Virus record (IMG/VR): IMGVR_UViG_3300017963_000003
Span: 96,001-160,000 of that record
Length of the DNA stretch: 64,000 bases
Reading direction: 5' to 3' (one strand)
Origin: a virus
In this document: piece by piece, positions 1-58,885 of the stretch
Numbering within the stretch: position 1 is the stretch's first letter
Layout: each line of letters begins with the position of its first letter
Made by a program: the position numbers and the translations under genes
Notes under the pieces: model-generated
The model's input: the letters and a program-made list of their open reading frames with translations, nothing else
Database searches by the model: none
What the model was told of the DNA's origin: nothing

Positions 1-1251
<1,251 letters not shown>

Positions 1252-33459: not shown

Positions 33460-33527
33460 TTGACAAATCGTCAAGGCCTACCCTGTACCCCAGGGGTACA
33501 AGCGGGATCGGGTTGACGATTTGTCAA
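33460..33527. repeat. Nested palindrome: two TTGAC-N5-GTCAA sites in inverted orientation flanking TGTACCCC-A-GGGGTACA
   Basis: TTGACAAATCGTCAA 33460-33474; perfect palindrome 33484-33500; TTGACGATTTGTCAA 33513-33527. Confidence 0.85.
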
Positions 33528-35084: not shown

Positions 35085-35094
35085 GAGGGACAAC

Positions 35095-37515: not shown

Positions 37516-37988
37516 TTAGACCCACACCCCGACAATCAAGACGTATCACCCGCACGCCACCCGTGCGAGACCCTCAACCCCTACCACCTAGCCGCACGCG
37601 TACAGACGCGCTAGACGCCTTTCTAACCGCTTTGTACGTCTACCCACGTCTTACCCCGTCCAACGTCTATAAGGGCGGTTCTCGGGCCGTCTGTCCTTCC
37701 TGGACGCCATCGCAGGCAGCGGCGGCCCGCTCTGATAGCCCTGAGAGGCCCGCTAAGGGGGTAGGAGCGGCCCGAAAGGGGTAGGGGTAGGCCCTGGCAT
37801 GCATCGGCGCTAGAGGCCGTCAGAATGGCGCACACGGCCTCTGAGGGCTAAGCAGGGTTAAGCTGCCGGAATCGCAAGGCTTTCGCACTTTCTGCCGGGG
37901 GTGTCGCTTTTTGCTTGACAGCCGGGCCGCTGGGCTGCTATACTATCAGAGACTAGGTGCATTGCGCCGCAACCCATGGAGGGCAACA

Positions 37989-38906: not shown

Positions 38907-39364
38907 TCCGTTCTACTCCCGAACAATATAGTCGTCCCGTCCTGCGACGGGTCTATCCGTCCTTTTCGACACAAGAAGCATTGAGCCACCCCTCATGAGG
39001 GGCTGACCCCCCACCCGTCGCGCGCCTGCGCCACCCGCGCACCCGTAGAGACCTAAGCAGGCCAGGGGACACCAACCGACCCACGCGCCCCGGCTGCTCG
39101 CCTCCCTGATAGCCCTCAGAGGCGCGAGGATGCCCCAAAAACGGCCGAAAGGGGGTTGGCCTATACCCTGGGGTGGGTTGGCGCTAAGGCCGCTCAGATT
39201 GGCGCACAAGCGCTCTAGCGGGGGAGGGCAGCTAAACCCCCGTAATCGCAAGGGAACCAGCAAAAGCGCAAGGGGTGTCAGAAAATGCTTGACAGCCGGG
39301 GGCTGGGCCGTGCTATAATATCAGAGACTAGGTGCATTGCGCACCGCAACCCATGGAGGGCAAC

Positions 39365-40758
39365 ATGAAACGTACCGTAGTAGAAGCGCTCGCGTCTTCG
39401 ATCCAGGCGCGCATCAACTGTGTCGGGTCGAACAACGACGAGTGGAGGGAGAAACACGAGGAGCGTATCGAGAAGATCGCCCGCGAGTGCCTCCCGTCCG
39501 GGAGCGGTATCGACGCGGGTTGTTCGGTCATTCTCGAAGAGTCGACCGCGAACAAGATCGTCTTGAGCGTACCATTCCATCATATGAACGACGACGGTAT
39601 GTACATCGGATGGATCACGTACCGCGCGACTGCCCGTCCGTCGTTCATCGGCGGCATGACCCTCCACCTCGAAGCAATCAATCCTTTCGAGATCGCAGAC
39701 GAGGAAGATCCCGACAACGCGGACTACTTCGAATGCATGACGGAATCCACGATGGATTACCTGGCGGACGTCCTCTCCGACGTCCTCGCCACCGAGATCG
39801 ACGAGAAGGAGTAGAACCGTGAAGAGAATCGAAATCACAATGACATCCGACGATTTCTACGGGGTCAAGACCGATCACGTGCTCAATCTCGAAGACAAGA
39901 GGTTCGGGATCGGCCTGGTACCGCCCGGACGCGAGGCCCGGCAGGTCTTCGAGGGTCCGATGGTTCCGGGTCCGTGGGCATACACGTACGGACTCGGGGT
40001 GTGCATCTGCGCGGACCCCCGGCGCAACACGGGTGCGGAGTCCGCGCGCAAGAAAGACGAAGGTACCGAGCACGTTATCGAACAGGAGGGCTAAAATGGA
40101 CTACACGATTCACGAGGAAGAGTACAAAGGCTTGACGATCCGCATCGAGCACGATCCTCTCGACGCGCCTAACCCTCTCCGAGATTTCGACTGCTACTCG
40201 GATCTCGTCACGGTGGTTTGCTTCCACTCTCGATACGATCTCGGGACCGAGAATCACGGATTCCGCGATCCCGACGAGGTTTGGGAGTACATCCGCAAGA
40301 CTCGCGCCGTCGCGCTCCCCTTGTACCTGTACGAGCACTCGGGGATCTCCATGTCGTGTTCGAACGGATCGTACCCGTTCAACTGTCCCTGGGACGCCGG
40401 GATGGTCGGGATCGCATTCATCGAGCGGGATAAGCTGATGCGCCAGCGCGGCCACAAGATCGCAACCAAGAAAGACAAGGAGTGGGCACGCGATTTCATC
40501 CTCACCACGATCAGCGAGTACGATCTCTACCTTCGCGGGGAGTCGTACGGATTCGTGATTGAGGACGAAAAGGGTGAACACCTCGATTCCTGTTGGGGAT
40601 TCTTGACCGACGAACCCGACGGAGGGTATCTCCTCGAAGAGGCGCGGGAAACGGCCAATTCCCACGTCAACCAGCGACGGTCGGATCACTTCGAACGCCT
40701 GAAGACCTGGATCAAGAATAACGTTCCCCTCTGCGCCCGCGAGTGCTGCCCCGCCTAG
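39365..40758 (+). CDS. Cassette of three early genes (39365-39814 LPSGSGID-type, 39819-40094, 40096-40758 YLYEHSG-type)
   Basis: Motifs typical of widespread phage early hypothetical proteins; function unknown. Confidence 0.65.
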
Positions 40759-41973
40759 TCCGTACTCCTCCCGACAATCGAGACGTCCACCCGCGCCACC
40801 CGTGCGCGACTGACAAACCCCTACCTACTGACCACGTGCGTACGTGCGCGCCACCCGTGCGCCTGTAGAGACCGAAGCAGGCCGCCGAGGACGGCAACCC
40901 ACCCCACGCGCCCCGGCCGGGGCCTGCCCTGATAGCCCTGGAAGGACCGGGAGCGGGCCTAGAACGGCCGATAGGGGGTTGGCCTATAGCCTGGCCTACC
41001 CTGAGGCCCGACCCCGGTTAAATCGCCGCACACGGCCCCTCACGGATAAGCCCGCCCAAGCCCCCGGAATCGCTGAGCTTTCTGCCTTTTTGCAGGGGGT
41101 GTCACTTTTTGCTTGACAGCCGGGCCGCCGCCCTGCTATACTATCAGAGACTAGGCGCATTGCGCCGCAACCCATGGAGGGCAACATGGTACAGTTCGAG
41201 ACGAAGAAAGCCGACACGTTGCGCGACGGAGACGTCGTACTCTTCGACGGGATCGAGGTTCTCGTATGCGACCCGCGTATGTCGCCGCGCACGGGATTCC
41301 ACGACAAGGATCGCGTCGTATTCAACATGATCGCGATGGACCTCTCGAACGAGGATCGCGACGGGGAGCTTGTCCGCCTGGGCGCGGACTCCACGATCCC
41401 CGCTCGCCCGTTCTCCCTCGAAGAGGACGCGATCTTCCCCGAGGACATGGACGAGGAGGTAGCGGCGTGATCCGTCGGTGCGAAGAATGCGGGTACGTCG
41501 GGCGTGACTTCGACTGCTACAAGGAGGAGTTCGACGAGGGAACCGAAGTCACCATCGAGGAGCTGTTCGACCTCGCGCGATCCGCGATCCGAAAGGAGAA
41601 GAGCGGTGCTTAGCCCCACCCCCGATGTGATCCGGCGTGCAGTCGCGGAGACCAGATCCCGCCGCGAGGATCGCCCCCGCGACTGCCTCTTCGATAATCT
41701 CTCGGATTCCGAGGCGTGCGATCTCGTGTTCGATTTCCTCGCCGCGCTCGATCCGCGAGACTACAGCCTGGTCAGCTGGCACGACGGGCAGCCCCGTATC
41801 GTCGCCCCCGCGACCAACACCGCGCCCGCCGTCGAGCGCCCCGGAGTGGGGCTTTGGCTGCGCGAGGGCGGAGATCTCCCATGCCTCGTCGTGGCATGCG
41901 ACGAGCTTGGCAACTGGATCGTGCTCAACGAAGACGGGTACGTCCAACAATATCTGGGAAACGAGGTACAGTG

Positions 41974-42516
41974 ATGCGTACGATCAGCCTGGACGAAGAC
42001 CCCATGATCCGTGTTCAGATCAAGAAAGGCGACGAGATCGTCCCCTTCTCCGACGAGTTCACGGGTTGGATCGACTGCGAAGTCAACGACGTCGCGGACA
42101 TGATCCTCGACGAGATCAACGAGATGATGGAATCCGTCGGCGGCGACTCGTGGAAGATCGTCGCGTCGGATGGATTCGGCGGCTGGGAAAACCCCGACGA
42201 CGATCTCGAAGAGATCGAGAAATTCGTCGAGATCTGCCGCATGCCCGAGATCAACGGGCGCAATGACGTGGTGGGGGTCATGGCCGCTAACGGCTACTAC
42301 GTTGATCTCGATGCGGTCGAAAGCGCGATCCGGGACCGGTTCGTCGGTATCGTCAACTGTTTCCGCGACTACGCGGCGGATTTCCTCGACGACATAGGGG
42401 ATATCCCCGAGTTCATCGTGCACTACATCGACCTGGATCGGTTCGCACGGGATCTCGAATCGGACTATGAGACTTACGAGACCCCCAGCGGCGAGACCGT
42501 GATCCTCCACGCCTAG
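41974..42516 (+). CDS. ardA: ArdA-like antirestriction DNA-mimic protein
   Basis: Very acidic; IVASDGFG, FVGIVNCFRDYAADFLDD, IPEFIVHYIDLDRFARDLE match the ArdA pattern. Confidence 0.8.
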   Translation: MRTISLDEDPMIRVQIKKGDEIVPFSDEFTGWIDCEVNDVADMILDEINEMMESVGGDSWKIVASDGFGGWENPDDDLEEIEKFVEICRMPEINGRNDVVGVMAANGYYVDLDAVESAIRDRFVGIVNCFRDYAADFLDDIGDIPEFIVHYIDLDRFARDLESDYETYETPSGETVILHA

Positions 42517-42882
42517 ACAACTCCCCCGACAATCAAGACGTCCACGCCACCCGCGCACCCGTAGAGACCTAAGCAGGCCAGGGGACACCAACCGACCCAC
42601 GCGCCCCGGCTGCTCGCCCCTGATAGCCCTGAGAGGCCCCAGAACGGCCGAGAGTGGCCGAGAGGGGATTGGCCTATACCCTGGCCTACCCTGAAGCCCG
42701 ACCCCGGTTAAATCGCCGCCTAGCGGCTCTCAGAGGCATTCGGCAAAAGCCCTGCAATTCCGAGCACTTGCAGAAAATTGCCGGGGGTGTCAAAAAATGC
42801 TTGACAGCCGGGCCGCCGCCCTGCTATACTATCAGAGACTAGTCGGGAACTGCCCGGCGCAACCCACGGAGGGCAACGAGTT

Positions 42883-43152
42883 ATGGAAAAGATGAATTAC
42901 GAAATGATAGAAAGCCTCGCACGGGAGATGTCCAGGGGCAATTTCCAATCCGACGAATGGTTGCTAGAAAAGCGCTTGCAGGAGTACTACAAGGACGAAA
43001 CAGACGTCACCTGGGATGAGATCTCCGAGAGCGAGTCGCCCGTGCGGGTAGTGGTACACGGAGACGGCACGTGCTCCGCCGCCTACCTCGACCACGACGA
43101 CCCCAACGGGATCGAGATCGTGCCGTTGGGTATCCTCGATTCCGACGCCTAG
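42883..43152 (+). CDS. Acidic early hypothetical protein
   Basis: Last rightward cassette ORF. Confidence 0.65.
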   Translation: MEKMNYEMIESLAREMSRGNFQSDEWLLEKRLQEYYKDETDVTWDEISESESPVRVVVHGDGTCSAAYLDHDDPNGIEIVPLGILDSDA

Positions 43153-43484
43153 ACAACTCCCCCGACAATCAAGACGTCCACGCCACCCTCACGCCACCCG
43201 CGCACGTAGGATCTCAACCCCACCAGGCTGCACGCGTACCCGCCCCCGGACAAGTCACCTTACCTTATACCGGCGCAGCCCGCGCCGCCCGGCTCGACCC
43301 CTCGGCCGCCCTGGGCTGGGGGTGAGCCTGGTAGATAGCCCTGAGAGTCACCAGGACGCCCGTCAGCAGCCGTTGAGGCTCGACCCTATAGCCGAGCCTA
43401 CCCGGACACTCGCGCCGGTTCTCCGGCCATCCTGAGGCCTCTCGCAGGGTCCGACCGCCCATCCTGGACTCGACGTTCGTCTAT

Positions 43485-43607: not shown

Positions 43608-44613
43608 CTAACCGGATTTCCCAGAGTCGATACCAGTCGTGTACAGGGACAGCCCGCGCTCGAATCGCTGCGCGCGTTTGTCCCTCCACCGCTCGACCTT
43701 TTCGTCCTCGTCGAGATCATCAAGGACGTGGATCTCAGAGTACGCCAACTTGATCGCATGGATCTTGTCACGTATCGACGTGATCTGAGGAGACAGCTCG
43801 CGCCGGGGATCGAGAGGGAACGACGTCTCCAGCTCGGCCCATTGACCGGGCATGATCTCGACGAAGAATCGGGTCTCGACTAAGAACTGCCGCTTCTCGG
43901 GATCGGATTCGTCTCCGTGGTATCGCAGCTTACGATACTCGTCGGGCAGATTCTCGCGCAACACGTGACGGAGCAAGCTCTTCATCTGCGCGAACGGATG
44001 ATCGTACGTCGAGGGAAACTCGACCTCGGCCGCCAGATCCTCTACACGCGTGATTGTCTTTTTCGCTCTCATCGTACGTGACCCTCCTCGTCCTCCCACC
44101 AGAGCAAGACACTGACGATCCGCTCCAGCATTGTATCTGTGATCTCTCGCTCCTGGATCGCGCTCCACGTGCGTTCCACGAGAGGCATCATGACCTCGGG
44201 CAGCGGGTGGCGATCCTCTATCACCATCTGGATCATCTGCTCCAACTGCTCCCGACACAACGGGGTACCCATTACGCGCGCCCTCCGACGAGCATACGAG
44301 CGATACGCAGCTCGCGCTCGCCCGCCTCGACCTCCAAACCGAACTCATCCGCGACGGTCAATGCGTCCTCGACGTACATCCCGATACGAAATTCCTTGCC
44401 TTCGAGGTCGAGAACGGGAACCGACGCATGGTCGCTGATCTTGACGGCTCGTGTGTGATCGATCCAGAGAACGTCGTCCTCGGTCGTGTGAGGGTATTTA
44501 CCCGACCGGTCAGCAACAGCGATCCGGGACTCGTGCGCGCCCGTGGTGGCAACGAAGAACCGATGACCATTTTTGAAGTCGAGCACCTTCTTCCACGCGT
44601 ATTCTCCACTCAT
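43608..44613 (-). CDS. Three hypothetical genes (43608-44072, 44069-44272, 44272-44613)
   Basis: Coupled ORFs downstream of the helicase. Confidence 0.6.
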
Positions 44614-44622
44614 CGTCCCCTC

Positions 44623-47055
44623 CTATCGTTCCCGAATGTAATCGCAGTACTCCGAGTACTCCAACCGGTCCGTGTGGTCCACGTCGTCGTCCGGGTCGAG
44701 CAGACGCTCGAAGAACTCGACGATGTTGACCGATCCCTCGACCTCGATACCCTGGTTGATTGCGTCGAGGATCTGCTCCTTTTCCTTGATCAAACCGATC
44801 AGATCCGAATCGAACGTCCCCTCGGCGTACAGCCAGTAGGAGTTGACAGAATCGGCGTCCGTACCAAGTCGGTGACACCGCGATTCAGCCTGATACAACG
44901 TAGCGGAATTCCACGGAAATTCGACGAACGCCACGTTGCTCGCCGCCTGCTGCAATCCGTCGAGTCCGGTACCGGCAGCCTGAATCGACGCCACCATAAC
45001 GCGGCACGAGGGATCGTCCTGGAACCGCTTGACCTCCGCTGCGCGGGTGGAGTCGGAATCTCCCCCTCGGATCTTGGCCGGGCATGCACACGCCAACGCG
45101 GCATGCAGACGATCCTGCACGTCCCGATGGTGGGCGAACACGACGATCTTCTCGTCGGACCCTTCCAGGAACGACTTGATCCACTCGATGCACGATTGGA
45201 TCTTGTGGGCCACGACGATCTGCTTCAGCCCCTCGATCCGTACCAGAGCCTCGGCCGTGTATTCGGAACGCGATGTACTCGCGTCTCCGCGCTTCGCCGC
45301 CATCCACCCGATCAGATCCTCCAGGCCGCGACGATACACCTCGATACGATCCAGCTCGACCGGGATCTCGGTACGCTGAAGGGCGGGGAGTTCTTTCGCC
45401 ACGTCTTTTTTCTCGCGCCTGACCATGCACTTGGATCGCAGGTGCGCCGCGAGATTGTCCAGGTTGCTCGCCCCTTTCATATCCCAATACCCGTTGATCT
45501 TCTTGGCATCGCAGTACGTCTTGACGAAACCCCAGAATCCACCGAGATCGTCCAGGCGATCCAGGAACGACAGCTGGTTGACCAACTCGACCGGACGATT
45601 GAGGATCGGGGTAGCAGTCAGCGCGAGCTTGTACACGACCGACGGCAGCCTCCCCAGCTCGATAACAGCCTTCGACCGTTGGGCCTTACGGCTCTTGATA
45701 TAGTGCGACTCGTCGAGGATGATGGTCTGGAACGGGATCGTGAGGAGCTTGTCCAGGTGCTTCGTGAGCACATCGTAATTGATCACGAGGTAGTCAGCGC
45801 GATACGCATCGTCACCCGAGATCTTACCCCCGTTGAGAATCCTCACGGATCGCGACGGGAGCCAGCGGCGCACTTCGTTCGCGAAGTGATGCTTCGTCGC
45901 CTTCGGACAGATGATCAACGCGGGGAACGCGTCCGCCACGTGCGGGACCAGGATCGACTGAGGGGTTTTCCCGAGTCCGGTATCATCCCCGAGGATCGCC
46001 CGCTTGGCGTCGAGGCAGTAGGCGATCCCGGCAGCCTGGAACGGGTAGGGAGCCAATCCCTCGGCCACCCCCTGCACGTCCAGATCCGCGCTCGCCGCGC
46101 TGCTAGCCGCGATCCGCGCCTTCGCCTCCTCGCCCTGGGCGTCCAGCCTGGCGCGGGTGGAGTCGGACATTGTCCAGCTGTACCGCTCGGCCAGGGCGAG
46201 CACCGCGTCGGACGCCATGGCGTCCAGCGGGCAGGTGTTGACCTTGCGCTGACCATCCCAACGTCGTCCAGGGATCTGGCGCATCGCCTCGACCGCAGCA
46301 GGATCGTAGGGGGTGCGCAGGACGATCTTGCCCTTCTCGATCTGGACGTTGTCGGGGGCCTCGGCCTGGGCCTTGCGCGAAGCTCGGTCGGCGCGCTCGA
46401 TCCCCTCGTCGACCTTGGCCCGGTCGGCGTCACGGATCGCGAACTCGAACCGGTCCAGGATCGCGGGGACCTCGGCCAGGCCCGCACCGACGACCTCCCA
46501 CCGGCAACGTCCACCGTTCCACTTACGGACCTTCCAATCGATAGCCTTGATCGCATCGATCAGGTCAGAATCGCGCGGGGAGTAGAAGGCGATCCCCTCC
46601 AGGATCTTCCCTCGGATCTCGATGGTCCCGGTCCACTCGGCCCAATAGAGCCGCTTGCCGTAGTGCTCGCGGAGATCCTCACGGGTAGCCTCGCCGCGCC
46701 CGTAGCGCTCGCGCAGCTGCTCACCTTCGATCCGCCCGGCCTTGGTCTTGAGGGACTTGCGCCGCTTGGCCGGGGTAGCGTCCCCGCCCCACTCACGCGG
46801 CGGCACGGTCAGCTCGGAGTACGTGATCCCGAACCCGCTGAGCTGCTTGGAGTACTTCTTGAGCATGCGATGGACTTCGAAACAGGTCTCGCGATCCCAC
46901 GAGGACTCGTCGACCAGGGCAATCGAGCGACCGAACGACGTATCGCTGGAATTGAACCCCATCCGGTCGTCTTCTCGCGCACCGTCGCAGACGACAGCGA
47001 GACTCATGGCGGCCTGGCGAAGCTCCGTGGCGATGCTGAGAAGATCGTTGTCCAT
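44623..47055 (-). CDS. SNF2/SMARCAL1(HARP)-like SF2 helicase, 810 aa
   Basis: PYPFQAAGI Q-motif, DDTGLGKT, LIICP, ILDESH, LTATPILN, MVRREKKDV, QAESRCHRLG. N-terminal segments IDAIKAIDW-RKWNG..RWEV and EAMRQIPGRRWDG.RKVNT resemble HARP domains. Confidence 0.88.
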   Translation of the reverse strand: MDNDLLSIATELRQAAMSLAVVCDGAREDDRMGFNSSDTSFGRSIALVDESSWDRETCFEVHRMLKKYSKQLSGFGITYSELTVPPREWGGDATPAKRRKSLKTKAGRIEGEQLRERYGRGEATREDLREHYGKRLYWAEWTGTIEIRGKILEGIAFYSPRDSDLIDAIKAIDWKVRKWNGGRCRWEVVGAGLAEVPAILDRFEFAIRDADRAKVDEGIERADRASRKAQAEAPDNVQIEKGKIVLRTPYDPAAVEAMRQIPGRRWDGQRKVNTCPLDAMASDAVLALAERYSWTMSDSTRARLDAQGEEAKARIAASSAASADLDVQGVAEGLAPYPFQAAGIAYCLDAKRAILGDDTGLGKTPQSILVPHVADAFPALIICPKATKHHFANEVRRWLPSRSVRILNGGKISGDDAYRADYLVINYDVLTKHLDKLLTIPFQTIILDESHYIKSRKAQRSKAVIELGRLPSVVYKLALTATPILNRPVELVNQLSFLDRLDDLGGFWGFVKTYCDAKKINGYWDMKGASNLDNLAAHLRSKCMVRREKKDVAKELPALQRTEIPVELDRIEVYRRGLEDLIGWMAAKRGDASTSRSEYTAEALVRIEGLKQIVVAHKIQSCIEWIKSFLEGSDEKIVVFAHHRDVQDRLHAALACACPAKIRGGDSDSTRAAEVKRFQDDPSCRVMVASIQAAGTGLDGLQQAASNVAFVEFPWNSATLYQAESRCHRLGTDADSVNSYWLYAEGTFDSDLIGLIKEKEQILDAINQGIEVEGSVNIVEFFERLLDPDDDVDHTDRLEYSEYCDYIRER

Positions 47056-47099
47056 GTTGCCCTCCGGGTTGCGCGAGTCGGTCAGAACCCGCTAGCCTA

Positions 47100-50000
47100 T
47101 GCTGCCAATATAGCATAGGCTCACCCCGCTGTCAAGCCCTTTCTCCCTACTCGATACCCGTCGTGAGCCGACCGACCTCATTCCCGTATCCGTACCTGGA
47201 CGGCACGTGTACACGGATCTCCACCCCGTCGACCGTGAACAACTCGCGATCCAGGATCTCGCGCACCTCACGGATCAGATCCGCTTCGTTGTCGTCCTCA
47301 TAGGGATTCCACGCCAACGGCACCTCGACCGTCGGCCGGTTCCAGTTTTCGTTCCCTCTCCGATCCTTGTCCGGTTCCGGGCACCAGACGATGTGCGCCA
47401 TACGCACGTCGTCCTCGTCCCCCACGCCGCGCCGAACACGCACGTCCACGTGCACGGGAGGATGGAGGCGCTCCGACTGGTTGAACACGTCGATGGCCCG
47501 CTGGATACGGTCACGTGTCTCGGAGATTGACGACAGCAACCTCTGCACCGACTCCACGACGTAGGTGCGCGGGCTGTCAGTACCGTCGTCCTCGTGACCA
47601 CCCGCCTCGACAATCAGGTCAGCGGGGATCTCCCGGAGTGTCTGCTCGGACAACGCATCGACCTCCGCTGTGAACTCGCGCAGCATCTCGGGAGTGATCT
47701 CCGCTAGCGGGGTCTCTCTGATCGTCCGATGGAAACGACCCCTCAACTTCGTCGCCGGGGTAGCTCTACTGAACCGGAACGAGCCTTCCTGAGCGGCACC
47801 CACGATCCACGTGAGCCACTTGCGGAGCGTAAACGATCCGTCATACGCGGGACGACCGGGACGGTCGAGATCGTACTCGCGCTCCTGGCGCTCGTGAGAC
47901 TCCTTGAACGCGCGGGCGCAACCCGGACAGCGACCCTCCCCAGTGCGGTCCTCGCGGATCTTCACCTCGCGACCCTCCAGGAGAGAGATCCCGTCGAGCT
48001 TCTTTTCGATGAACCGCTGAGCCGCCGCCTTCGAGTCGTGCTTGCATTGCGCGAGCGCCCGGTGACGGATCTTGTCGGAGACCTCTCCGATCTCGCAAAG
48101 GGGAGTACCGTCGACTTCGATGAGACACTTGATACGCTTGGAACCCATGTTGCCCTCCGTGTCGCCGGCCAGCGGTCATCACCAGCCTGATAAACCCAGC
48201 TTACCACCCTTTGCAGCCGGTGTCAAGCAAAAAATGACACCCGGCTAACTATTCCCGGTCGAGGCGACCCAGCTCCTTCGCTCGCGGTCCCTCGTTACGT
48301 CATACACGGCATCGTACACGTCCTCGATCATCGCCTGTAACGCGAGCTGGCACACGATACCAGGGGTCCCCGCAGACGTATCGAGATCCATGCTGCCAAT
48401 ATCCATCGAATAGAGATTGTTACTCGCGCCCAGGATCGTCAACGAGAAGCGATAGTTCAGCTGACGATCCGACGAGAACGGGGTCGAATGGATCGCATCC
48501 TCGACGATCCCCAAGCCCTCGCCCTCGAAGTCCGCATCGAACCCCGCTGCGATCAGTCCCTTAGCCAGATCCGTGACCACCTCGAAATACTCCTCGGAAC
48601 CCATCGGTGTCATCTCAGCCTCCCTGGTAGCGATCCCTCTATGTCTAACGACGCCAGTGGTCGAAACGAGATTTCGCGCGCTCGACCACATAGGTCGTCG
48701 GTGTCCAGCTCCGTGCGCAATCGTCGCACACCAGGCGACCCGTGCCGAGCGCGGTAGGAGATCCCTCGTTGGTCTCGACGAGATCCCCGCGCTCCACGCA
48801 GCCGCGCTCTACACGATCCACCTCGAAGGTCCGCACGACCCTCTCCACGTAGAGCAGTCGGCCCCCGCAGTCCAGGCACACCGGGCGTGAGCTAGGCATC
48901 GTCCCCTTCCTCCTCGTCGTCGGCGTTCCGGTCGTCATCTTCCTGGCACCAGCGGCAGATCCGGTTCCCATCGGCATCCGTGAAAGACAGCTTCTCGCCG
49001 CCCTCCTCGGCCGGATCGATGATCCCGTCGCACCGCTCGCATCGGTCGCAGAAACAATCCTCACAGAGAACGGTCGTGAACACGATCCCGATCCCGCCGT
49101 CGCCATGGTAGGCGTTCTCGTCGTGGAGAGCGCCAGACGACAGAGATCCCTCGCGGGGATAGGTGCGCTCCCCGCAGTACGAGCACTCGTAAAACATCTT
49201 GTTACGACCGAGAATCTTGTTCACCCTCGCGCACACACGCCCGACGTTGGTCGGGTTGTTCTCACGGGCGAACTCCAGGATCGAAGCGTTGTCGCGCAGA
49301 TCGTACACGTAGACCCCGCGCTCGTCATCGGCGCTCGCGGCGACCCGACGGGCTTCGTCGGGATCGGTGATCCCCTTGTAGCCCGACGATGCGACGTCTG
49401 CGAACTCCCCGTTGTCCCCCAGGAGAAAAAAATTCCACTCCCAGATACAACCATCGTACCCGCCACCCTTGTACTGTACCAGTTTCATCGCGTTGCCCTC
49501 CGTGTTGTCGCCAGCGAGTCACCGCCAGCCTGATAAGCCCAATCTATCATACCCGGAGCCGGGTGTCAAGCAAAAAATGACACCTATCTCGACCTGACCT
49601 CGGCATGGCGGAACTCGTACCCCCTCAGCAGACCCTCTTGGTACGCCAACTCAAGATCGTCGTCGTCCGAGTAACGATAGTACACGCACGGACCATCACC
49701 ACCAAGCCAACGAGCATACGAGAGATTGGACCGGACCTGCATAGCCGCATAGAGCAGCTGACACTCCTCGCAGCCGCAGAGGATCATCACGCGCCTCCGG
49801 GTCCGTCGGATTCGACCGCCAGAGACACCTCGACCACACCCCCGGAGAACAGAACGTGCAGCTCCGCGAACTTGTTGATCGCAGCAGCACGTTCGTCGCA
49901 CACGATCTCCACGACCGCCGACTCGGAATCCCCGTAGACGACGATCTGGATCTGCGCCACCCGCGATCCGTCGCTGAGCGTTCCCTCCACGAGACGAAGT

Positions 50001-53000
50001 TCGATCTCCGGTTGCGGTCGGGATCGCTCGATGCACTTGGACATGTTGGGTCACCTTTCTCCTCTAGCGCCCCTAGTTGTCGGACAGCCCAGCCTCGTCG
50101 AGCATGTCCGAGACGAGGTAACGCACCGCATGGATCTCGATCTCGGTCGGCAGCTGTCCCGCGACGACGTCGAGTGCCATCGCCTTGATCGCATGGACGC
50201 GTTGAGGGCGGCTCATATAGCGCCAGGTTGACCGACCCCCGACAGCAGCGATGGTCCCCTTAACGAATCCCCGGACCTGCTCTCTGTCCCAGTTGCGATT
50301 GTCCATGCCGCCCTCCGTGTCGCCAGCCAGCGGTCATCGCCTGCCTGATAACCCTAAGCTACCACATCCGGAGCCGGAAGTCAAGCAAAAAATGACACCC
50401 CGTCGCTGCTAATCCCCCTCGACCTCGTTCAGCAGCTCCGTGTAGGCTGCGCCGCCGAGCAGGAACGACAGCTCGCGCACCTGATCCACGCACTCGCGGA
50501 ACGTGCGCTCGGCCCGGCGAGAATCGGTGTCGAATCCGATATTCTCCGCCCACTCCTCGAACGAATCGACGTCCTCGACATACCTGCAATCGCTGGCCAG
50601 GCACTCCAGGACCCCGTCCACCGTCGGAGGACCCTTGATCCCGGTCCCCTGGGAGAACGGCACTTCCATGCGCTTGCCGCCCACCACGAGGGTACACAGG
50701 TAGTGGTTCGCCTGCCACCTCGGATCGGAATCCATGTTGGGGTTGGAGTCGGCGTCCTCTACCGTCATCTCGATCTCGTGCTTCTCGACGAATTCTTCGA
50801 AGTTCATACTGCCCTCCGTTTCCTCAGCCTCTCAAGCCCAACTATACCACAGGCTCACCAGCCTGTCAAGCAAAAAACTACACCCTAGCCGATCTCCCGG
50901 ACCCACCGACCCCTGACCGTGGAACCGCAATGCTTGCACACGTGCTCCTCGTCGTCTTTCCAGACGTCCAAGAGCACCGCTCCCGCGTTGGGAGTGCCGA
51001 AATCAGACAGAGGAGCCTCCAGCGGATCGGCCCCGTACCCGTCATCACCCCTATCGTACACGAGGATGCCTTCGTAATAGGGGATCTCGTCGGCGTCGAG
51101 CAGACGGAACCGGACACGGACGAGACGATCCTCGGGCAGCGCGGCGAACCGGGCCTTGACGTCATCGTACTGACTCGGCCCGCAGATCCCCACGTTGTAA
51201 CCCTTGGTGGGATCGTCGTCGGAGGTCGGAGTATTTCCCTCTTCGTTCTCGATGAAGTCGTGCGTGATCTCCCAGATGTGGTTGATCTCTTCCGGCGGGA
51301 CGTCGCCTTTGCTCCAGTACATACTACCCTCCGCACGTGGGGAGCGACGTCTCCACGGAGATCGCCACCACCGCACTCGTGTCGAACTCATTGACGTGCA
51401 CGAGCTGCCCGATCCTGGGGAACAACTCGATCTTCTCGTCGTCGGTGCAGACGACCGTCCGGTGAACGGTCTCCCCGTTGGCGAGCTTGACGGTGAGATC
51501 GTGGATGCGTGTGGTGCGCTCGAACCGGTGACCCGCGCAGCCGTCCTCCTCGATGGGGTTGCCGCACATGAGGCAGCAGGGGTCCACGGTGTCGTCCAGC
51601 AGCGGGCTACGGTACCCGCAGCGCCAGCAAAGAACCGAAACGATGGTGTTGAACGTCATTGCTGCCCTCCGTTGTCTGGACCAGCGGTCATCGCCTGCCT
51701 GATAACCCTAAGCTACCACATCCGGAGCCGGAAGTCAAGCAAAAAATGACACCCCTAGTCGCCGTCCTCTATCGCCGCGAGCAGATCCGACCCGCAACTC
51801 GGACAACGAAACTCCCCCGGCCGCTCCCCCAGACGTTCGTCGTCAGTTCCGGTCTCGAAACACTCCCCGCACTCCCAGGTATCCTTGTCGAAGAACTCGG
51901 TACCATCCCACGAAGGATCGTCCTCGGGATTTGCGATCTCCTCGGTCCTCGCCACCGAGCAGTACGCCGCACCCTCTTCAGCCTCCCGCGCCAACGCGGA
52001 GATCTCGAAAAGGTTGGGATCGGTCACCTCGGGGTCCGTCCAGATCACGATGGTTGTTTTCTGTAGCTTCCGCATGACCTACCTCTCCGCGTAGACGACC
52101 CGGTCCAGGCCCATGCTGTCCTCGGAGATCCGGGCAGTTGTGTTGAGCCGAGCCTCTCCGCGCTCCTCGATAACAGCGGGGCAGCGGCGACCGTACATGC
52201 CGCGCCCCGAATACATGTAATCGACCTTGAAGAACTGCTCCTCGGCGTCGTCGACGAACTGTTGCTGGTTCTTGGACAGTTCGTACCGGGGGCTCGGCTC
52301 CATCTGGCCCGCGTCCCGGATCACGTCTTCGAACGTGGTTCCGTCGAAGTCGTTCACGAGCGAGGAACCTTGCACAACGAGACCAGGACCGCTCGGCCCC
52401 GCGTCATCTGCCGCATAGAGTAGATCGACGAGGAAATCGGCAAGAAGCTCCTTGGCCTTATCTGGACTGAGACGTTCTCTCATAGCTACCCTCCGTGGTT
52501 GAGACCGGTTGTCATCGCCAGCCTGATAGCCTACCGTACCATACCCGGAGCCGGGTGTCAAGCAAAAAAGGACACCCCTACCCTTCGTCCTCGGAGAGGG
52601 TCAACCCGTCCATGACCCCCAGGGTCTCAATGCACTCGAACGCCGACCGAGACATACTGTCCTCGATGTATTTCCGATTCTTCGACAACCACTCCTCTGC
52701 CTCTTCCCGGGACAGGTCGAAGAGCTGCTGAACGTCCTCTGCCGCGAAAGTAGAGGAAGCGATTACTTTATCCGAATGGTCACCCACGTTACCCTCCATG
52801 CTGCCGACACCAACACAACACCCGCTACAGAGTATCGAAGTCTATCTCCTCCCCGAACTTGACGACCGTGATCGGCTCACCTTCGCTACGTCGGATCTCG
52901 ATTCCCTCGCGAGTCACGACGTACAGATACTCAATGTCTCCGTGAAGTTCCGTACACAAACCGTGCCCCAAAAACTTGCCACGATTGATGTGCGCCTGGA

Positions 53001-54775
53001 GATCCTCTTCCGATTTGGTTGACCAGTAGGAACCCGGCTCCCGGTACGTCTCCTCGTTGTGCGCCTGATAGTCCGCAATGAGCTTCGCGCAGAGGTGGGC
53101 GATCATGTACTCCTCGTCCCATCCGCGCCACTTCAAAAACTCTTCGCAGATCGGCTTGAGCGCCGCTACGACCCCGTTCTTGGTGCCGGGGTAGCCATCG
53201 CTGTGACGGTAGAGGTAGACGGGGTTCCCTTCGACCTGGATCTGACATCTGGTGCTCATGTTGCCCTCCGTGTTGTGAGCCAGCGGTCATCGCCAGCCTG
53301 TGAAGCCCATCCTACCACAGCCGAGAGCAGGTGTCAAGCAGAAAATGACACCCTACCGGCTCGTTCTCTTCTCGTCCTCTTCCTCCAGGATCTCTTCGAT
53401 TTCGTCCATGACGCACGCAGAGCATTTGTCTCCGGAGCGGATAATGACCCGCGCCCCGCAAACCAAGCACTGATCCAGATCCTCTTCACAGGTATCGAAC
53501 GGATCACCCGCTGCATCCAGGATCTCCCCGTCGCGTTCGATCTGAGCCACACGATCCTTGAGAGCCTTGAGCAGCTCCGAGGCTGTCACCTTCTCCGACG
53601 GGTTCAACGTGTACAGCTCGAAACCTATGGTGTACCCGTGGTTGTAGTAGGTGTAACGCTTTTCGTCCAGGTGAGAGTGGATTTCCGCCCCGCAGATGGG
53701 GCAATCTGCCGCTTCACCCTCCGGTACCATGATGGTGTCCTCGTTGCCGCACTCGTCGCACGTACACTCGATGAGTCTCTTCTCAGCCATGACGCCCTCC
53801 GTTGTTGAGACCAGCGAGTCACCGCCAGCCTGATAACCCTAAGCTACCACATCCGGAGCCGGAAGTCAAGCAAAAAATGACACCCTAGACGGGGCAGTCC
53901 TGAACAACGTCCTCGGCCTGCTCACGACGGTCTTCGATCCACTGGTCTACCCCCTCGGAGCGGGCCTCTTCGATCTGGTCTTCCTCACTCATCCCGGCAT
54001 CGCGCTCTCGGGGATCGATCTCCACGTCGCTCTCGTCGAAATCATCCGCAAACGATCCCGCCAACTCAGACGCCGCGCTCTCGATCTCCGAGGCCCAGCT
54101 GTCCAGCTCGTTTGCCTTCTCCTCGCACTCATCGGCAGTAGGGGAGTCGGAGAAGGTGTCCCGAATGTTGTCGCATGACTCCTGGTACTCCTCGGAGACC
54201 TCGCGAACAGTCTCCGCGAACCGGTTGAGTATCTCCTGGAGGTCCGCCGCGTCCTCGTCGCACCACTTGCCGATCTCTTCGAGCGCGTCTTCCTGGGCGT
54301 CGTAGACGATCCCCATCTTCGACGACGTCATCTCGCTCGGACGGAACTGACAGAACTCGCAGCGAACCTTCTTGCCTCCGTACCGGGGCTTGATCCACTT
54401 GTAGGGATCACCGACCTTGATCTCCTTGTCGCAGCGACCACACCGTCCCTGATCCTTGCGTGCCTTCTGGACGTGGTTGATCCTCATAGCTCCTCCCTTA
54501 CAGAATCTCCCGATCCCCTCGAACCAAATGGCCGATTGTCTACTTGAGACGGGCCAGCTTCTTCTCGATCAGCTTGAGGCGCAGCCGTTCGAGACGCTTG
54601 GACAGGGCGGCGCGCTCTACCCCATCGCGGGTGGTAGCGATCTTCTCCTCCAGCACCTTGATTCTCTTGTTCAGCTTCATGTTGCCCTCCTTGTTGCCGC
54701 TCGGCGTCACCCGAGCCTGATAAGCCTAATCTATCACACCCGGAGCCGGGTGTCAAGCAAAAAATGACACCCTAG
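47100..54775 (-). repeat. Leftward cassette array: nine copies of (GGTG/GAAG)TCAAGCAAAAAATGACACCC promoter-operator repeats plus one partial copy
   Basis: Copies near 48219, 49562, 50378, 50863, 51731, 52554, 53330, 53862, 54749. A 58-bp block is identical at 50343, 51697 and 53828. On the minus strand each reads TTGAC(A/T)-17nt-TAGCTT/TAAGCT/TAGATT type -10, then CGGAGGGCAAC-ATG. Confidence 0.92.
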
Positions 54776-54963
54776 TCAGTATCGGAATCTCGGGCCTGTT
54801 GGAGGGAGCGGCAGCTCGCACAGATGCAGTCAGGGGATTCGTAAATGTCCATCTCGGGGTTGGGGGACTCCAGCTCGACTGTTCGACCGCAAGAGGTGCA
54901 CAGGAAGACAATGCGTTTATCCACCACAGGGATTCTGTACTTCGTGAACGTGAACTCAGGCAT
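47147..54963 (-). CDS. About 19 early hypothetical genes in leftward cassettes (e.g. 47147-48148, 48892-49488, 50409-50807, 50885-51322, 52079-52483, 52825-53259, 53353-53790, 53885-54487)
   Basis: Acidic and Zn-finger small ORFs, most starting immediately after the GGAGGGCAAC RBS. Confidence 0.7.
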
Positions 54964-55022
54964 GTTGCACCTTGGGCCTCATCGTAACAAAGGATGGATC
55001 GGTGGTCTAAAAATCTACCTTG

Positions 55023-55793
55023 CTACTTCACGGCAGCCCCCAGACCCGCGTGCATGGCGATGAAACGGGATAGGTACTCTCCGGCCAGGTGATGACCATC
55101 CCCGGTGTGGTACTGCGGTTGCTTGACCGTACGCTCCTCGACCTCGACCTCCCGCTTCGCCAGCCAGGAATCCGCAACGTGATCCTCGTTGATCGCCAGA
55201 GCAGTTGACTCGTGGTTCTCCTGCTGCGGTGCGTTCTCGCGCTCCTCTTTCCACCGACGAGCGAGTCCGGTCACGATCCCAAAACACATCTCGGACTTGG
55301 CCGTCTCCGTGTAGGACTCGAACGTCGGCCACGCCTTCGCCTGGAGCGGATGCTTCTCCCAGAGTTCACGACGCACCGTGTAGGAATCGGCGGCGCGCTG
55401 GATCTCGTTGAGGCACGATTCGAACCCATGCGCGGCGATCTCCGAGACGGTCTTGATCCCGTAGTAGGTCAGCTGACCGTCCTGATGCGGTGTGGCCTCG
55501 ACGTAGTGGACTCGCGTGGAGAAGTAGTCAGCCACGCTGATCGCCAGGGACAAGACCCACTTGTCCGGCACCTTGAGCGCCAGGGTCACGACGGTCTCCC
55601 CACCGGGACCGTCCTCGACGAACACCCCCTCAAGCTCGTGCTGCTCGATCCCGTACTGGAGCATGAGCTTCTTGGCGGTCTCCATGGCGGCATCGGCCTC
55701 GTGGTCAACCCCGTCCGCATCGGGGATCGGATGCTGCGCCCGGTTGACGAGTCCCCGAATCTTCGAGATGATCCTGTCGCGCTTAGCAGGCAT
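55023..55793 (-). CDS. DUF2786-like protein
   Basis: RIISKIRGLVNRA...HEADAAMETAKKLMLQYGI. Confidence 0.7.
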   Translation of the reverse strand: MPAKRDRIISKIRGLVNRAQHPIPDADGVDHEADAAMETAKKLMLQYGIEQHELEGVFVEDGPGGETVVTLALKVPDKWVLSLAISVADYFSTRVHYVEATPHQDGQLTYYGIKTVSEIAAHGFESCLNEIQRAADSYTVRRELWEKHPLQAKAWPTFESYTETAKSEMCFGIVTGLARRWKEERENAPQQENHESTALAINEDHVADSWLAKREVEVEERTVKQPQYHTGDGHHLAGEYLSRFIAMHAGLGAAVK

Positions 55794-56158
55794 CGGTTCC
55801 CTCCTCGACCGCACTCAGCCGAGATTCTAAAAAGCATACCCGCTCCTCCAGCTCATCGAGACGATCCAAAAGTGCACCATAAGGAGAACAATCCCGGCAT
55901 AGTCCTTCCCCGTCCAAGTCTTCGTAGTAGACCCTGCACCGGCACTTGCTGCAACGATCACTCATCGTGATCCCCTACGTACCGGACGAACGTGACTGCT
56001 GCACAGCCATCCCGGTGACAGCGCACATTCACCGCATCCCCTCGACGCGCACACCAACCGTCCACCTCGAAGGGCTTGACCATCTCCTCAACCACCGCCT
56101 CGCGCTCCTCTTTCTTGTATCGAATTCGCGCTTGATAGGTTCCGATTTGTACCCGGAG

Positions 56159-57100
56159 CTACTCATCGTCATCCTCCTCGCTCTCGACCATACCCTGGCG
56201 GTCCATGTACTCTGCCAGCTCAACATAGTTCTCCGCGAAAGCGCGCATCTCGGCCCGCATGCGCGCCTCTTCCTCCACCAACTCTGCCCACTTGCCCAGA
56301 TCGAGGAAGGACTCTACCGTGGTCGTGACCATCCGGTCCAGTTCCTTCGGTTCGACCGCGTCCAGCTCCCAGGACGAGTAGCCGTGCTGGGCAATGTAGT
56401 CCTTGGCCCGGGAGTCGGTGAGCTTCGCCGGATTCTCCGGAGGCTGAAGCTCCTCGATCTGCTCCCAGAGAAGAGCAAGACGTTGGAACTCCACGGGGCC
56501 ACCTGAGAACAGGCTCAGCCGCTCCTCGACGTCCCTGTCCATGTCCAAGCCCGAGGGGTCGTGGTCCCCCAGATAGAGCACCACAATGCGCTTCCTACGA
56601 AACCTGCGAAGCTTCTTCAGATCCTCACCGATGCGCCACATCGTCGACTGAGAGGAGTAGCCTTTGTTGGCGATGAAGTTGACGTCCAGGCGCTTACAGA
56701 CCGGCTCCAGCACACCCTCCAAGGCCTGCTTCTCCACTGCCACCATGACGTGGCACGGCTGCGTCTCCCACTTGTCGATACGGAACGAATTCGAAGCCGC
56801 CTGGATAATGTCGGCCGGGTCGCTCCAGTGGGGAGGCTCGACGAGCTTACGACCTCGGTCGACGATCTGCCCCCAATCCAGCAGACCCGCCATGCGACCG
56901 TCGTTGACGAGCGTACCGAGGTTCTTGTACTCACGCTGGTTGTTGGGAATAATGTCCCGGCTGACGAGCTGGTAGTAGAGCTGTCTCAGTGACAGATCGT
57001 ATCCTTGCTCGGCGTAGCTGTTCATGATGCTGTTGATCATGCCGAGCAGCTCCAGCTTATCGTCGCGGAAGTTCTTCTCGATGTATGCGATCTTCGGCAC
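56159..57100 (-). CDS. wHTH-TOPRIM protein (Topo VI-A/Spo11-like fold, phage type)
   Basis: LSLRQLYYQLVS, VAVEKQAL, NKGYSS, LYLGDHDPSG (E...DxD TOPRIM), WELDAV; GTG start. Confidence 0.8.
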   Translation of the reverse strand: MPKIAYIEKNFRDDKLELLGMINSIMNSYAEQGYDLSLRQLYYQLVSRDIIPNNQREYKNLGTLVNDGRMAGLLDWGQIVDRGRKLVEPPHWSDPADIIQAASNSFRIDKWETQPCHVMVAVEKQALEGVLEPVCKRLDVNFIANKGYSSQSTMWRIGEDLKKLRRFRRKRIVVLYLGDHDPSGLDMDRDVEERLSLFSGGPVEFQRLALLWEQIEELQPPENPAKLTDSRAKDYIAQHGYSSWELDAVEPKELDRMVTTTVESFLDLGKWAELVEEEARMRAEMRAFAENYVELAEYMDRQGMVESEEDDDE

Positions 57101-57217
57101 GTTGCCCTCCGTATGGGTGCTGGTGTCATCCAGCTTACAGACCCACCTTACCATATCAGCAGGTGGCTGTCAATATACCGGAGGTTCTTTTTTCGCGGAA
57201 AGTTTGTTCAGGTGGGA

Positions 57218-58885
57218 TTACTGCTGCGGACGCTGCGACCGGGGGACCGATCCGCTCATCTCCCCAGCGAACCGGAGGATGGCATCCGACCACCCGCCGA
57301 GGATGAACGTGCGGTCGTAGAACTCGGGCACGATGGTGTCCTGGTAACCAGCAATCTGCACCAGGTAGACCATGACGTTCGGGTTCACCTTGTTCCGGTA
57401 CTCGATGATGAGCTTCGGAACATCGATGTGATTCCCGCTGCCCGGCCACACGTACCGCATGTAGTCGGCCGAGTTGACCCCGTACAGACCACCGTGACCG
57501 GCCTGCATGTCCGAGTACACGAACACGTGGTCCCAATGCTCGCCGTTCTTGATCGCCTGGTCCCAGAACAACCAGATACCGTTCTCGGTGCCAGCGCCGA
57601 TACGCTGACCCTTCCGGTTGAGTTGCTCAGTCTGCTCGAACACCGAGGCCTTCTTACGAATCGGCATCGTCACCAGACGGTCACCGAACACTCCGGCATA
57701 CCCTTCCTCGGAAGCCATCCCAGTGATGACACCGGTCAGGTTACCGATCTCGGCCACGTGCATCGTCCCCGACGAGGAGGTCATCGAACCCCAGGCAGAG
57801 CCGCTGTTGTCGCACAGAGACATGCACCGACCCTTGAAGACCGGAACGTTCTCCAAGATCGCCACCTCCAGACACTCCTCGACGGCGTCCAGGAGCAACG
57901 GAGACGGGTTCTCCGCCTTCAGGGCATTGTAGGCCGCGAAGTACCGGAACGGCAGCTGACGTCCCTCAGGGGCACCGTCGACGAGCTTGCCCACGAACTC
58001 CTTGGGGTCCACGCCGGCCTGAGTCAGGTTCCGCAGGTTCCGCAACAGCGCCATGTGGCCCATCTTCTCGATGGACTCACGCCACGCAGCCTTGGTCGAC
58101 CCCTTCTCCGAGATCAACGCCTCCCAGGTATCACCGGTCACCTTCAGCTCACCCTTGGAGAGCTTCGACACCGCATCCGACGCCGGATGGCAGATGTTGA
58201 CGACGTCCACGAGCTTCACCTCGCGAGACTCCATCCGGTACTTGGCCAGCTGGTACTCGCTGAACCCTTCCAGGACGAGCTTCCACGCCTTCTTGAGCGC
58301 GTTCGGAATCCGCTGTCGTCCGTACTTCTGGATCTGGTAGGCCAGTTGCACAGCCGGTTCATCCGCTCGCACCATGACCTGCTGGGCGTACTTGCGCACC
58401 AATCCCGTACCCTTGACCGACGGGTGATGGGCCGCGCGGACCATGATCACCTGCGGGGTCGTACGGATGTTGTACGTGCGCCCCCGCAGCTCAACCGCCA
58501 GCTGGAGAGTCCCCTCGGGGTCGTGCCCCAGGGCCGCGTCGATGGCGGACTCCATCAGCTCGGCCGGCTCCATGCCCCTCCACTCCCGAGGGTCTTTGGC
58601 GTCCAAGGTCTCCCGGAGATGCTGCAACTGGCGGTTGTCGAGGCGGCACCACCTGTCCATCGTCATCACGTTCTTGCGCCGCCTCGTCTGATCCCCGTGG
58701 TAGTACATCGGCTCACCGAAGAAGCACGAGGCCGCAGCCATCCGCAGCTGGTCGAGGGGGTTGTCCACGGAGTAGGAGCGCCCGCCCATCCAGTTCAGAT
58801 GCGCGTTCTCCGCTGCGTACTCTTCGTGTTCTCGTCGTTGCCGTCGATGCTTGACCGACGCCGTCGCAGTTCGATTGATGCCCAT
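57218..58885 (-). CDS. rsr: Ro60/Rsr-like TROVE + vWA RNA-binding protein
   Basis: FFGEPMYY, LAVELR, RADEP, YQLAKY, TWEALIS, MALLRNLRNL, QLPFRYFAAY, vWA MIDAS CDNSGS, VYSDMQ. Confidence 0.9.
   Translation of the reverse strand: MGINRTATASVKHRRQRREHEEYAAENAHLNWMGGRSYSVDNPLDQLRMAAASCFFGEPMYYHGDQTRRRKNVMTMDRWCRLDNRQLQHLRETLDAKDPREWRGMEPAELMESAIDAALGHDPEGTLQLAVELRGRTYNIRTTPQVIMVRAAHHPSVKGTGLVRKYAQQVMVRADEPAVQLAYQIQKYGRQRIPNALKKAWKLVLEGFSEYQLAKYRMESREVKLVDVVNICHPASDAVSKLSKGELKVTGDTWEALISEKGSTKAAWRESIEKMGHMALLRNLRNLTQAGVDPKEFVGKLVDGAPEGRQLPFRYFAAYNALKAENPSPLLLDAVEECLEVAILENVPVFKGRCMSLCDNSGSAWGSMTSSSGTMHVAEIGNLTGVITGMASEEGYAGVFGDRLVTMPIRKKASVFEQTEQLNRKGQRIGAGTENGIWLFWDQAIKNGEHWDHVFVYSDMQAGHGGLYGVNSADYMRYVWPGSGNHIDVPKLIIEYRNKVNPNVMVYLVQIAGYQDTIVPEFYDRTFILGGWSDAILRFAGEMSGSVPRSQRPQQ

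Follow-up and report, generated by a model that had tools for sequence, protein, structure and literature searches.

Repeated promoter units as probable recombination seams between early gene cassettes of an uncultured GC-rich phage

Results

A leftward gene array punctuated by promoter units

We analysed a stretch of 64,000 nucleotides, referred to here as the window, which corresponds to bases 96001-160000 of the 192,260-bp virus record IMGVR_UViG_3300017963_000003. The phage genome in this record has direct terminal repeats, is rated 100% complete and has a GC content of 55-65% (about 59%). Between a gene for a SNF2-family helicase and a DUF2786/DUF7168 gene lies an array of small leftward genes, interrupted at short intervals by a repeat unit of ~95 nt that carries a putative promoter and ribosome-binding site (RBS). 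We consider it highly probable that these repeated early promoter units also act as recombination seams, at which gene cassettes are turned over by general recombination in a manner resembling the promoter-early stem-loops (PeSLs) of T4-type phages. The features of the array are listed below in window coordinates; the sister lineage mentioned there is a relative recovered from metagenomes and described in a later section.

55023-55793, minus strand: DUF2786/DUF7168 gene, conserved anchor upstream of the leftward array
54681-54774, minus strand: unit P1, running from the TAG of a 63-aa gene through GGGTGTCA-T6GC-TTGACA, a 17-nt palindromic spacer, TAGATT, a leader hairpin and GGAGGG to the ATG of a 46-aa gene
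53791-53887, minus strand: unit P2, 'TTCC' type with the 58-nt block; the sister lineage has an orthologue that is 100% identical
53260-53355, minus strand: unit P3
52484-52580, minus strand: unit P4, whose 5' part up to ACGGAGGG survives in a hybrid unit of the sister lineage
51660-51757, minus strand: unit P5, 'TTCC' type with the 58-nt block; its 3' end is the other half of that hybrid unit
50808-50887, minus strand: unit P6, a shorter variant with GGGTGTAG, the spacer palindrome ACAGGCT/AGCCTGT, TATAGT and a short leader
50307-50411, minus strand: unit P7, 'TTCC' type with the 58-nt block and an 8-nt gap after the TAG at 50409-50411
49489-49586, minus strand: unit P8, whose position is occupied in the sister lineage by a P5-like unit (98% identical to P5)
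48149-48247, minus strand: unit P9, with TAG, 2 nt, then GGGTGTCA
47056-47149, minus strand: unit P10, a variant tenth unit before the SNF2 helicase gene, with TTGACA-17-TATATT and a different hairpin across the -10; ~95% conserved in the relative L009 despite diverged flanking coding stretches
47147-54963, minus strand: cargo of about 21 small genes (46-333 aa) in nine short operons, almost all of them ORFans or members of PHROGs of unknown function, many with CxxC pairs
44623-47055, minus strand: SNF2-family helicase, conserved anchor downstream of the leftward array

A search of the whole genome with the motif GGTGTCATTTTTTGCTTGAC, allowing up to 3 mismatches, returned 9 minus-strand and 3 plus-strand copies, and the reversed control pattern returned 0. 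With up to 5 mismatches the counts were 9 minus and 6 plus, all between 34.7 and 54.8 kb of the window and none elsewhere in the genome. A repeat search picked out a direct repeat of 51-97 nt, present in 7-8 copies from 48.1 to 54.8 kb, the copies of 97 nt lying at 48146-48242, 49489-49585, 50304-50400, 51658-51754, 53257-53353, 53789-53885 and 54676-54772, with a further copy at 52480-52577 and a shorter variant at 50802-50888. The nine repeats claimed in the initial annotation were thus recovered as nine leftward copies of the ~95-nt unit by motif and repeat searches alike. So was the 58-nt block reported to be identical three times, which is present in P2, P5 and P7; 75 nt are common to two of these units.

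Anatomy of a unit

Read along the minus strand, a unit starts with a TAG stop codon, followed by (G)GGTGTCA, TTTTTTGC, TTGACA, a spacer of 17-18 nt and an extended -10 element (TG-n-TAnnnT). After ~8 nt to the likely transcription start come a stem-loop of 6-10 bp, CAACAC and the ribosome site GGAGGG, which lies 4-7 nt upstream of the ATG. The spacer is often palindromic, from the ACA of the -35 to the TGT before the -10. TTGAC and GGTGT are invariant in all 24 aligned units. The stop-to-start gaps measure 77-102 nt and, in seven of nine cases, consist of the unit entirely. The seven gene ends reported to touch the repeats (49584, 50885, 51755, 52578, 53353, 53885 and 54772) each proved to be a genuine TAG stop in contact with, or overlapping, GG(G)TGTCA, and the remaining two stops, as had also been stated, lie slightly apart, with 2 nt (48245) and 8 nt (50409) of extra sequence after the stop. 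The earlier proposal that the units delimit cassettes agrees with this layout, in which predicted promoter-RBS units bound small gene groups.

In 14 of 17 distinct leaders, single-sequence folding places a 6-10-bp stem-loop near the predicted mRNA 5' end. The stems differ in sequence between units yet stay paired (e.g. GCUCGG/CCGAGC and GGUUGGUGG/UCACCGACC), and the loop is often (A/G)UGAC. This leader hairpin may be a 5' stabiliser or a regulator site.

Promoter-like sites are strongly clustered. Sixteen of the 17 sites of the form TTGAC[AT]-16..18-TAnnnT in the whole genome fall at 130.7-155.6 kb of the record, and a promoter scan of window 44000-57500 returned 8 sites against 3.4 expected from shuffles, the top five by score being P1, P3, P6, P8 and P10. 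Because promoter-like sites are nearly confined to this interval, we read it as an early region dependent on the host RNA polymerase, to which the array would belong.

Stop codons

Stop codons and gene spacing were counted with a crude gene caller of our own. Across the genome TAG is used more than any other stop (115 of 247 calls); it accounts for 35 of the 49 stops in the early region (128-160 kb of the record) and ends 20 of the 21 called genes at window 47147-54963, operon-internal genes included. Since TAG is the commonest stop and is also used within operons, its choice is not specific to the repeats; only its exact abutment is. In 13 of 17 distinct leftward-type units from three lineages, TAG stands 0-1 nt before the G-run whatever the upstream gene, including genes found in a single lineage, and in one unit of the sister lineage (L109_2026) it abuts the unit although the called open reading frame (ORF) ends 14 nt earlier in another frame. 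In alignment, the 8-nt gap at 50409 (P7) looks like the scar of an 82-aa gene, which in the sister lineage separates the same TAGCAG from the unit. Co-directional genes are separated by a median of 5 nt, with a lower quartile of -4 nt. The TAG seems to travel with the unit, and the abutment is best explained by genome compaction together with such travelling.

The dominance of TAG is unusual at ~59% GC, where TGA normally dominates. No sign of recoding was seen, the coding density under table 11 being 91%.

Two lineages and their cassette maps

Relatives were sought by scanning metagenome contigs for the core motif and by look-ups with proteins. The core-motif scan yielded contigs L109 and L141, with 4 and 7 copies, and the overlapping L128, their mutual overlap being 98.5-100% identical; L134, from the same scan, was a chance match and was set aside. 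Together with L151-L156 (L151 being L141 again) these define a sister lineage of seven contigs from several samples. The arrangement of the window was recovered, 100% identical over 13.2 kb, in the independent assemblies L159-L164. Thus, because both arrangements recur in separate contigs and assemblies, two lineages coexist in the same sample series. Elsewhere, the exact 20-nt core was found in no other record among IMG/VR contigs, and a degenerate core gave only single chance-level matches in IMG/VR and in 185,579 species genomes (81 stretches in the latter, ~70 being expected by our own estimate). Searches against 50,697 deposited phage genomes returned no match for the array at the nucleotide level, in near and distant modes, and no close match for the helicase, whose best protein matches are at most 35% identical (Thermus, Arthrobacter and uncultured phages).

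The maps of the two lineages are given below in the order of transcription; numbers are protein lengths in residues, hyphens join genes of one group and P marks a unit.

Window: 256-63 P 46-200 P 145 P 144-69 P 134-106 P 111-145 P 132 P 77-85-67 P 198-84-122 P 333 P helicase
Sister lineage: 256-63 P 157-76-111-68 P 96-88 P 200 P 127-138 P 144-69 P 111-145 P 132-82 P 51-61 P 197-86-112 P 329, then helicase

The nucleotide identity of the pieces shared by the two maps is a patchwork (100, 92, 86, 77, 78, 95, 100, 99.5, 98, 94, 92, 90 and 65%). A third, more distant lineage (L157), with proteins 56-66% identical, keeps the unit core at 20 of 20 positions with the TAG abutting; between its 200-aa and 132-aa genes lie just a single small gene and a single unit, against four cassettes in the window. 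In L012, whose helicase is 44% identical, the homolog of the DUF2786/DUF7168 gene lies directly before the helicase gene and the whole array is missing. The contigs found via the helicase (L010, L011, L013 at 39% identity and L012 at 44%) have neither array genes in common with the window nor dense unit repeats; they are too distant to test shuffling. The initial annotation had called for a comparison of gene order in related phages, and this comparison reveals indels and replacements bounded by the repeats.

A further relative of 5.2 kb, L009, covers the downstream end of the array (L009:1-1130 against window 46700-47900). The 3' part of its helicase gene and three downstream genes are 96-100% identical to those of the window; divergence is strong in the first ~100 codons of the helicase gene and in the upstream 333-aa gene (45% identity for the upstream protein), and the promoter between them is ~95% identical.

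Breakpoints at base resolution

The sister-lineage unit before the 111-aa gene (L141_2956) is identical to P4 up to ACGGAGGG and to P5 from there on, and the cassette of 134-aa and 106-aa genes that separates P4 from P5 in the window is absent. This hybrid pins the gain or loss of a cassette to a crossover zone of 8 nt at the ribosome site and is a clean unit-to-unit recombinant. Other junctions fall elsewhere in or near the units. At P1 and P7, identity between window and sister lineage is lost directly behind TTGACA. The 2 kb of extra sequence in the sister lineage reach precisely to the start codon of the 200-aa gene, and the extra genes of 138 aa and 82 aa in that lineage adjoin the 5' edge of a unit. 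The cassette of P7 is replaced in the sister lineage, the other breakpoint lying inside the 67-aa gene, of which ~60 nt remain there. Finally, the unit before the 198-aa gene has been exchanged, the sister copy being 98% identical to P5 and 84% to its orthologue P8. Two breakpoints follow the -35, others coincide with the ACGGAGGG ribosome site or with a start codon, lie within 15 nt of a unit edge or precede the TAG by a few nt, and one is intragenic. The initial annotation had placed the crossover at the palindrome, a view with which this scatter along the unit, and in part outside it, does not agree.

A rightward sister family of units

A second array converges on the leftward one.

34700-42900, plus strand: six rightward units, with GGGGGTGTCA-N6-GCTTGACA, TATACT and GGAGGGCAACATG

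These rightward units have the same GGTGTCA-N6-GCTTGAC head and the same GGAGGGCAACATG tail as the leftward units. Across the rightward array (window 34460-43480, plus strand), mosaic, strand-biased repeats stand before each unit over 300-480 nt, a length well beyond the needs of a promoter, and gene-free gaps lie at 35505-35990, 37515-37989, 38906-39365, 40758-41186 and 42516-42883. Tandem 11-bp repeats (CATCAAGTACC) occur at window 33000-33054, within a gene-free stretch of ~2 kb (32685-34806) that precedes the first rightward unit.

Hairpins and the invariant head

Each unit contains an upstream inverted repeat, GGGTGTCA-N9-TGACACCC (here H1), which overlaps the -35, is 86.5% paired and is the predicted fold in most units. 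Variation is confined to its right arm, where some changes give G-U pairs and some mismatches; the left arm is invariant. The spacer palindrome (H2), which shares the ACACCC segment with H1, shows two-sided changes in 19 cells against 11 +/- 2.7 in shuffles (5 of 500 shuffles reached as high); in a fixed register only 63% of it is paired, and its z-scores are weak in many units.

In the distant relative L012, a classical GC hairpin, a T7 run and ATA precede TTGACA before the helicase gene and one other gene (L012:3226-3260 and 7580-7700). Because these hairpin-T7 terminators sit directly before TTGACA, a composite terminator-promoter is likely to be the ancestral layout, and the T6 of the units may be a vestige of the terminator. 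Two other ideas were dropped. The T-tract as a terminator with its stem in the end of the upstream ORF gave one weak predicted case and was inconsistent across copies, and a MITE-like nature was rejected on inspection of the unit sequences by eye, with no dedicated test, since neither target duplications nor terminal inverted repeats across the whole unit were seen.

Discussion

How the units may recombine

In the mechanism that we propose, each intergenic gap would be a compact expression unit. A stop codon comes first, then GGGTGTCA and a T-tract, which form an inverted repeat together with the -35 of a sigma-70/sigma-A promoter close to consensus whose -10 is extended; a stem-loop, a strong ribosome site and a start codon complete the unit. 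The phage is assumed to be lytic, and its array would be read early by the host RNA polymerase. Since the ~95-nt units are direct repeats with identical tracts of 20-75 nt, homologous recombination, together with some illegitimate deletion, could join unit to unit, and such joining would delete, insert, replace or re-promote whole cassettes without breaking expression, as proposed for the PeSLs of T4-type phages. The enzyme, we infer, would be the phage's own RecA, which is encoded outside the window at record 191072-191851 on the minus strand, ~400 bases from the right end (330 bits to PF00154); RecT and Erf were not found in the complete genome. Of the cassette capture and shuffling system put forward in the initial annotation, gain, loss, replacement and unit swapping at the repeats stand. 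The term 'capture system' is an overstatement, since ordinary homologous and illegitimate recombination suffice.

Several observations weigh against assigning the units this double role. The relative order of shared genes does not differ among the three lineages, so that gain, loss, replacement and unit swapping are seen and reordering is not. Each lineage is clonal across assemblies, and ongoing turnover is therefore not observed. A number of breakpoints fall outside any unit, at gene ends or within a gene, which means that the units are not the only seams. Promoter activity and timing are themselves predictions from sequence. As to the hairpins, no compensatory, two-sided changes were found in H1 among the aligned units. 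H1 has no U-tail and a terminator scan of the region gave hits at chance level, so that the 'effective terminator' half of the PeSL definition is at most putative here.

Without compensatory pairs, H1 could be a protein-binding site no less than an RNA hairpin. It is possible, if on balance doubtful, that the invariant GGGTGTCA-T6-GC is mainly such a site, either the operator of a phage shut-off repressor or a class II activator or UP-type site for the host polymerase, the repeats being kept for co-regulation and recombination being incidental, without a selected role. The asymmetry of H1, with its invariant left and variable right arm, would suit this, as would the inverted repeat TGTCA-N9-TGACA centred near -40 and overlapping the -35, the conservation of the 20-nt core at 20 of 20 positions in L157, whose proteins are only 56-66% identical, and the fact that the same core heads the leftward and rightward families. 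However, no candidate binding protein was identified, and matches to the degenerate core in the 185,579 species genomes stay at chance level with no taxon enriched, so that no host regulon is visible. This explanation is compatible with recombination at the units and does not exclude it. The inverted repeat might instead act as RNA on read-through transcripts, as a terminator, a processing site or a 3' protective hairpin, with the abutting stop coupling translation to a switch between H1 and H2. H1 is indeed the predicted minimum-energy structure in most units, G-U wobble keeps it paired in the 'TTCC' variants, H2 shares ACACCC with H1 and shows modest two-sided changes, and TAG lies 0-3 nt from H1 in seven of nine units. 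We nevertheless regard an RNA element as unlikely, given the absent U-tail, the chance-level terminator scan, the limited pairing and weak z-scores of H2, and a median co-directional gap of 5 nt, from which compaction alone predicts the abutment.

Site-specific capture, in which a dedicated recombinase would cross over at the GGGTGTCA/TGACACCC palindrome as at the attC site of an integron, accounts for imperfect palindromes at every cassette boundary and for small cassettes, promoterless or single-gene in integrons, in series, and in two comparisons identity does stop just after the 21-nt conserved core. The initial annotation had noted that the window holds no integrase, and this extends to the complete genome: tyrosine recombinases (PF00589; all 14 control genomes positive) and serine recombinases (PF00239; positive in control genomes) are absent. 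Integrons need the IntI tyrosine recombinase and a common promoter Pc, whereas here each cassette has its own promoter, and the breakpoints are not fixed, since they fall at four or more positions of the unit (ribosome site, start codon and after the -35 among them) as well as outside. The analogy with attC thus fails both on the integrase and on a fixed position of recombination, and site-specific capture is largely refuted and in our view extremely improbable. We favour ordinary homologous recombination with some illegitimate deletion because the crossovers are scattered, identical tracts reach 20-75 nt and units have been swapped between positions; long direct repeats suit recombination of the RecA type, and a RecA is encoded.

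One extension of the proposed scheme deserves mention, although we judge it quite improbable. The head TAG-GGGTGTCA-T6 may be the recognition site of a dedicated phage factor that co-regulates the early cassettes and stimulates exchange between units, possibly an ORFan zinc-ribbon protein such as the product of the 333-aa gene at the end of the array. We mention it because the head is preserved at 20 of 20 positions in a lineage with proteins 56-66% identical and is common to two convergent arrays. If true, the units would form a self-contained 'stop-promoter-leader-start' plug system for gene acquisition in a phage group unrelated to T4.

Comparison with known systems

PeSLs have been described in the T4-type phages RB49/phi1, T4/PST and KVP40/nt-1 (Arbiol et al. 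2010, PMC2839356; Comeau et al. 2014, PMC4122927). According to these two studies (PMC2839356, PMC4122927), they extend from stop to ATG, with an AT-rich stretch and a stem-loop just upstream of a sigma-70-like early promoter and with a Shine-Dalgarno (SD) sequence and start codon at the 3' end. Clusters of them occupy hyperplastic regions of small ORFans, beside indels and replacements between close relatives. Crossovers were mapped between the -10 and the ATG, terminator activity of the stem-loop and excised mini-circles are further traits, and a dedicated recombinase was left open (PMC2839356, PMC4122927). The units of the present array likewise fill the stop-to-ATG gap, with an AT-rich stretch and inverted repeat by a near-consensus sigma-70 promoter and SD and start at the 3' end. 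They too stand among small, non-conserved, putatively early ORFs, relatives differ by indels and replacements at them, with crossovers between the -10 and the ATG, and no dedicated recombinase is known. The comparison with PeSLs made in the initial annotation thus fits feature by feature, and every sequence-level feature of a PeSL is present here in predicted form. There are differences: the phage is GC-rich (~59%), carries direct terminal repeats and lacks a close relative among the 50,697 phage records, and in its units the stem-loop uses the -35 as its 3' arm, lacks a terminator-like U-tail, is joined by an extra 5' leader hairpin and is accompanied by a TAG that appears to travel with the unit. 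Direct terminal repeats and ~59% GC are unlike T4-type genomes, and we would class the array as a functional analogue of PeSLs and not as a member of that group by descent. Searches of the genome found no match to the HK97 capsid family (PF05065) and none to T4 Gp23 (PF07068), a family that matched no control genome either.

A similar case is the haloarchaeal myovirus HGTV-1 (Sencilo et al. 2013, summarised in PMC3950731), where PeSL-like promoter and inverted-repeat motifs precede most left-arm ORFs and both regulation and shuffling were proposed. As far as that summary goes, the likeness lies in a conserved promoter and inverted repeat before most genes of one arm in a large, non-T4 tailed virus; the promoters there are of the archaeal TATA type, and PMC3950731 cites no comparison of close relatives.

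The PeSL principle is thus already known, and no new mechanism is added to it; what is new is its extension to an uncultured, GC-rich phage of 192 kb without cultured relatives. The two co-occurring lineages and the hybrid unit provide an unusually clean natural recombinant.

Two other phage systems bear partial likeness to the array. The host-takeover module of Bacillus phage SPO1 is said, in work of 1998 by Stewart and colleagues, to consist of many short early operons, each with a strong promoter. Dense, strong, host-type early promoters and ribosome sites reportedly drive small genes, mostly of unknown function, as they would here. The SPO1 module lies in the terminal redundancy, and to our knowledge its promoters have not been described as near-identical repeats of ~95 nt or as recombination seams. 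The stoperators of cluster A mycobacteriophages are many copies of an asymmetric repressor site near gene ends, in temperate phages with a cognate repressor and an integrase. Here, too, an invariant short motif adjoins stop codons. In contrast to stoperators, every copy appears to be part of a complete promoter, there is no integrase and no repressor was identified.

Cargo genes and neighbouring features

Searches of the array proteins against Pfam gave no significant match, and against PHROGs four matched families of unknown function. An HMMER search of 1.84 billion representative proteins found only two relatives of the 333-aa protein. Atlas look-alikes of the 333-aa and 198-aa proteins, including a 0.77 'integrase core-binding' lead, fell below the score level of shuffled proteins and were not counted. 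A 180-aa protein of the rightward array (window 41974-42516, plus strand) gives a match to the ArdA antirestriction family with an E value of 7.7e-12 and 46.5 bits (cut-off 27) and is the only recognisable counter-defence gene in both early arrays. That the cargo serves host takeover or anti-defence, as the initial annotation proposed, is a reasonable guess. The units would mark early, dispensable genes and so give a short, delimited list of ORFans as candidates for host takeover or counter-defence.

A 313-aa protein (window 56159-57100, minus strand) matches phrog_6247, 'DNA topoisomerase', with an E value of 2e-104; it has no Pfam family, and its homolog in L012 is 72% identical.

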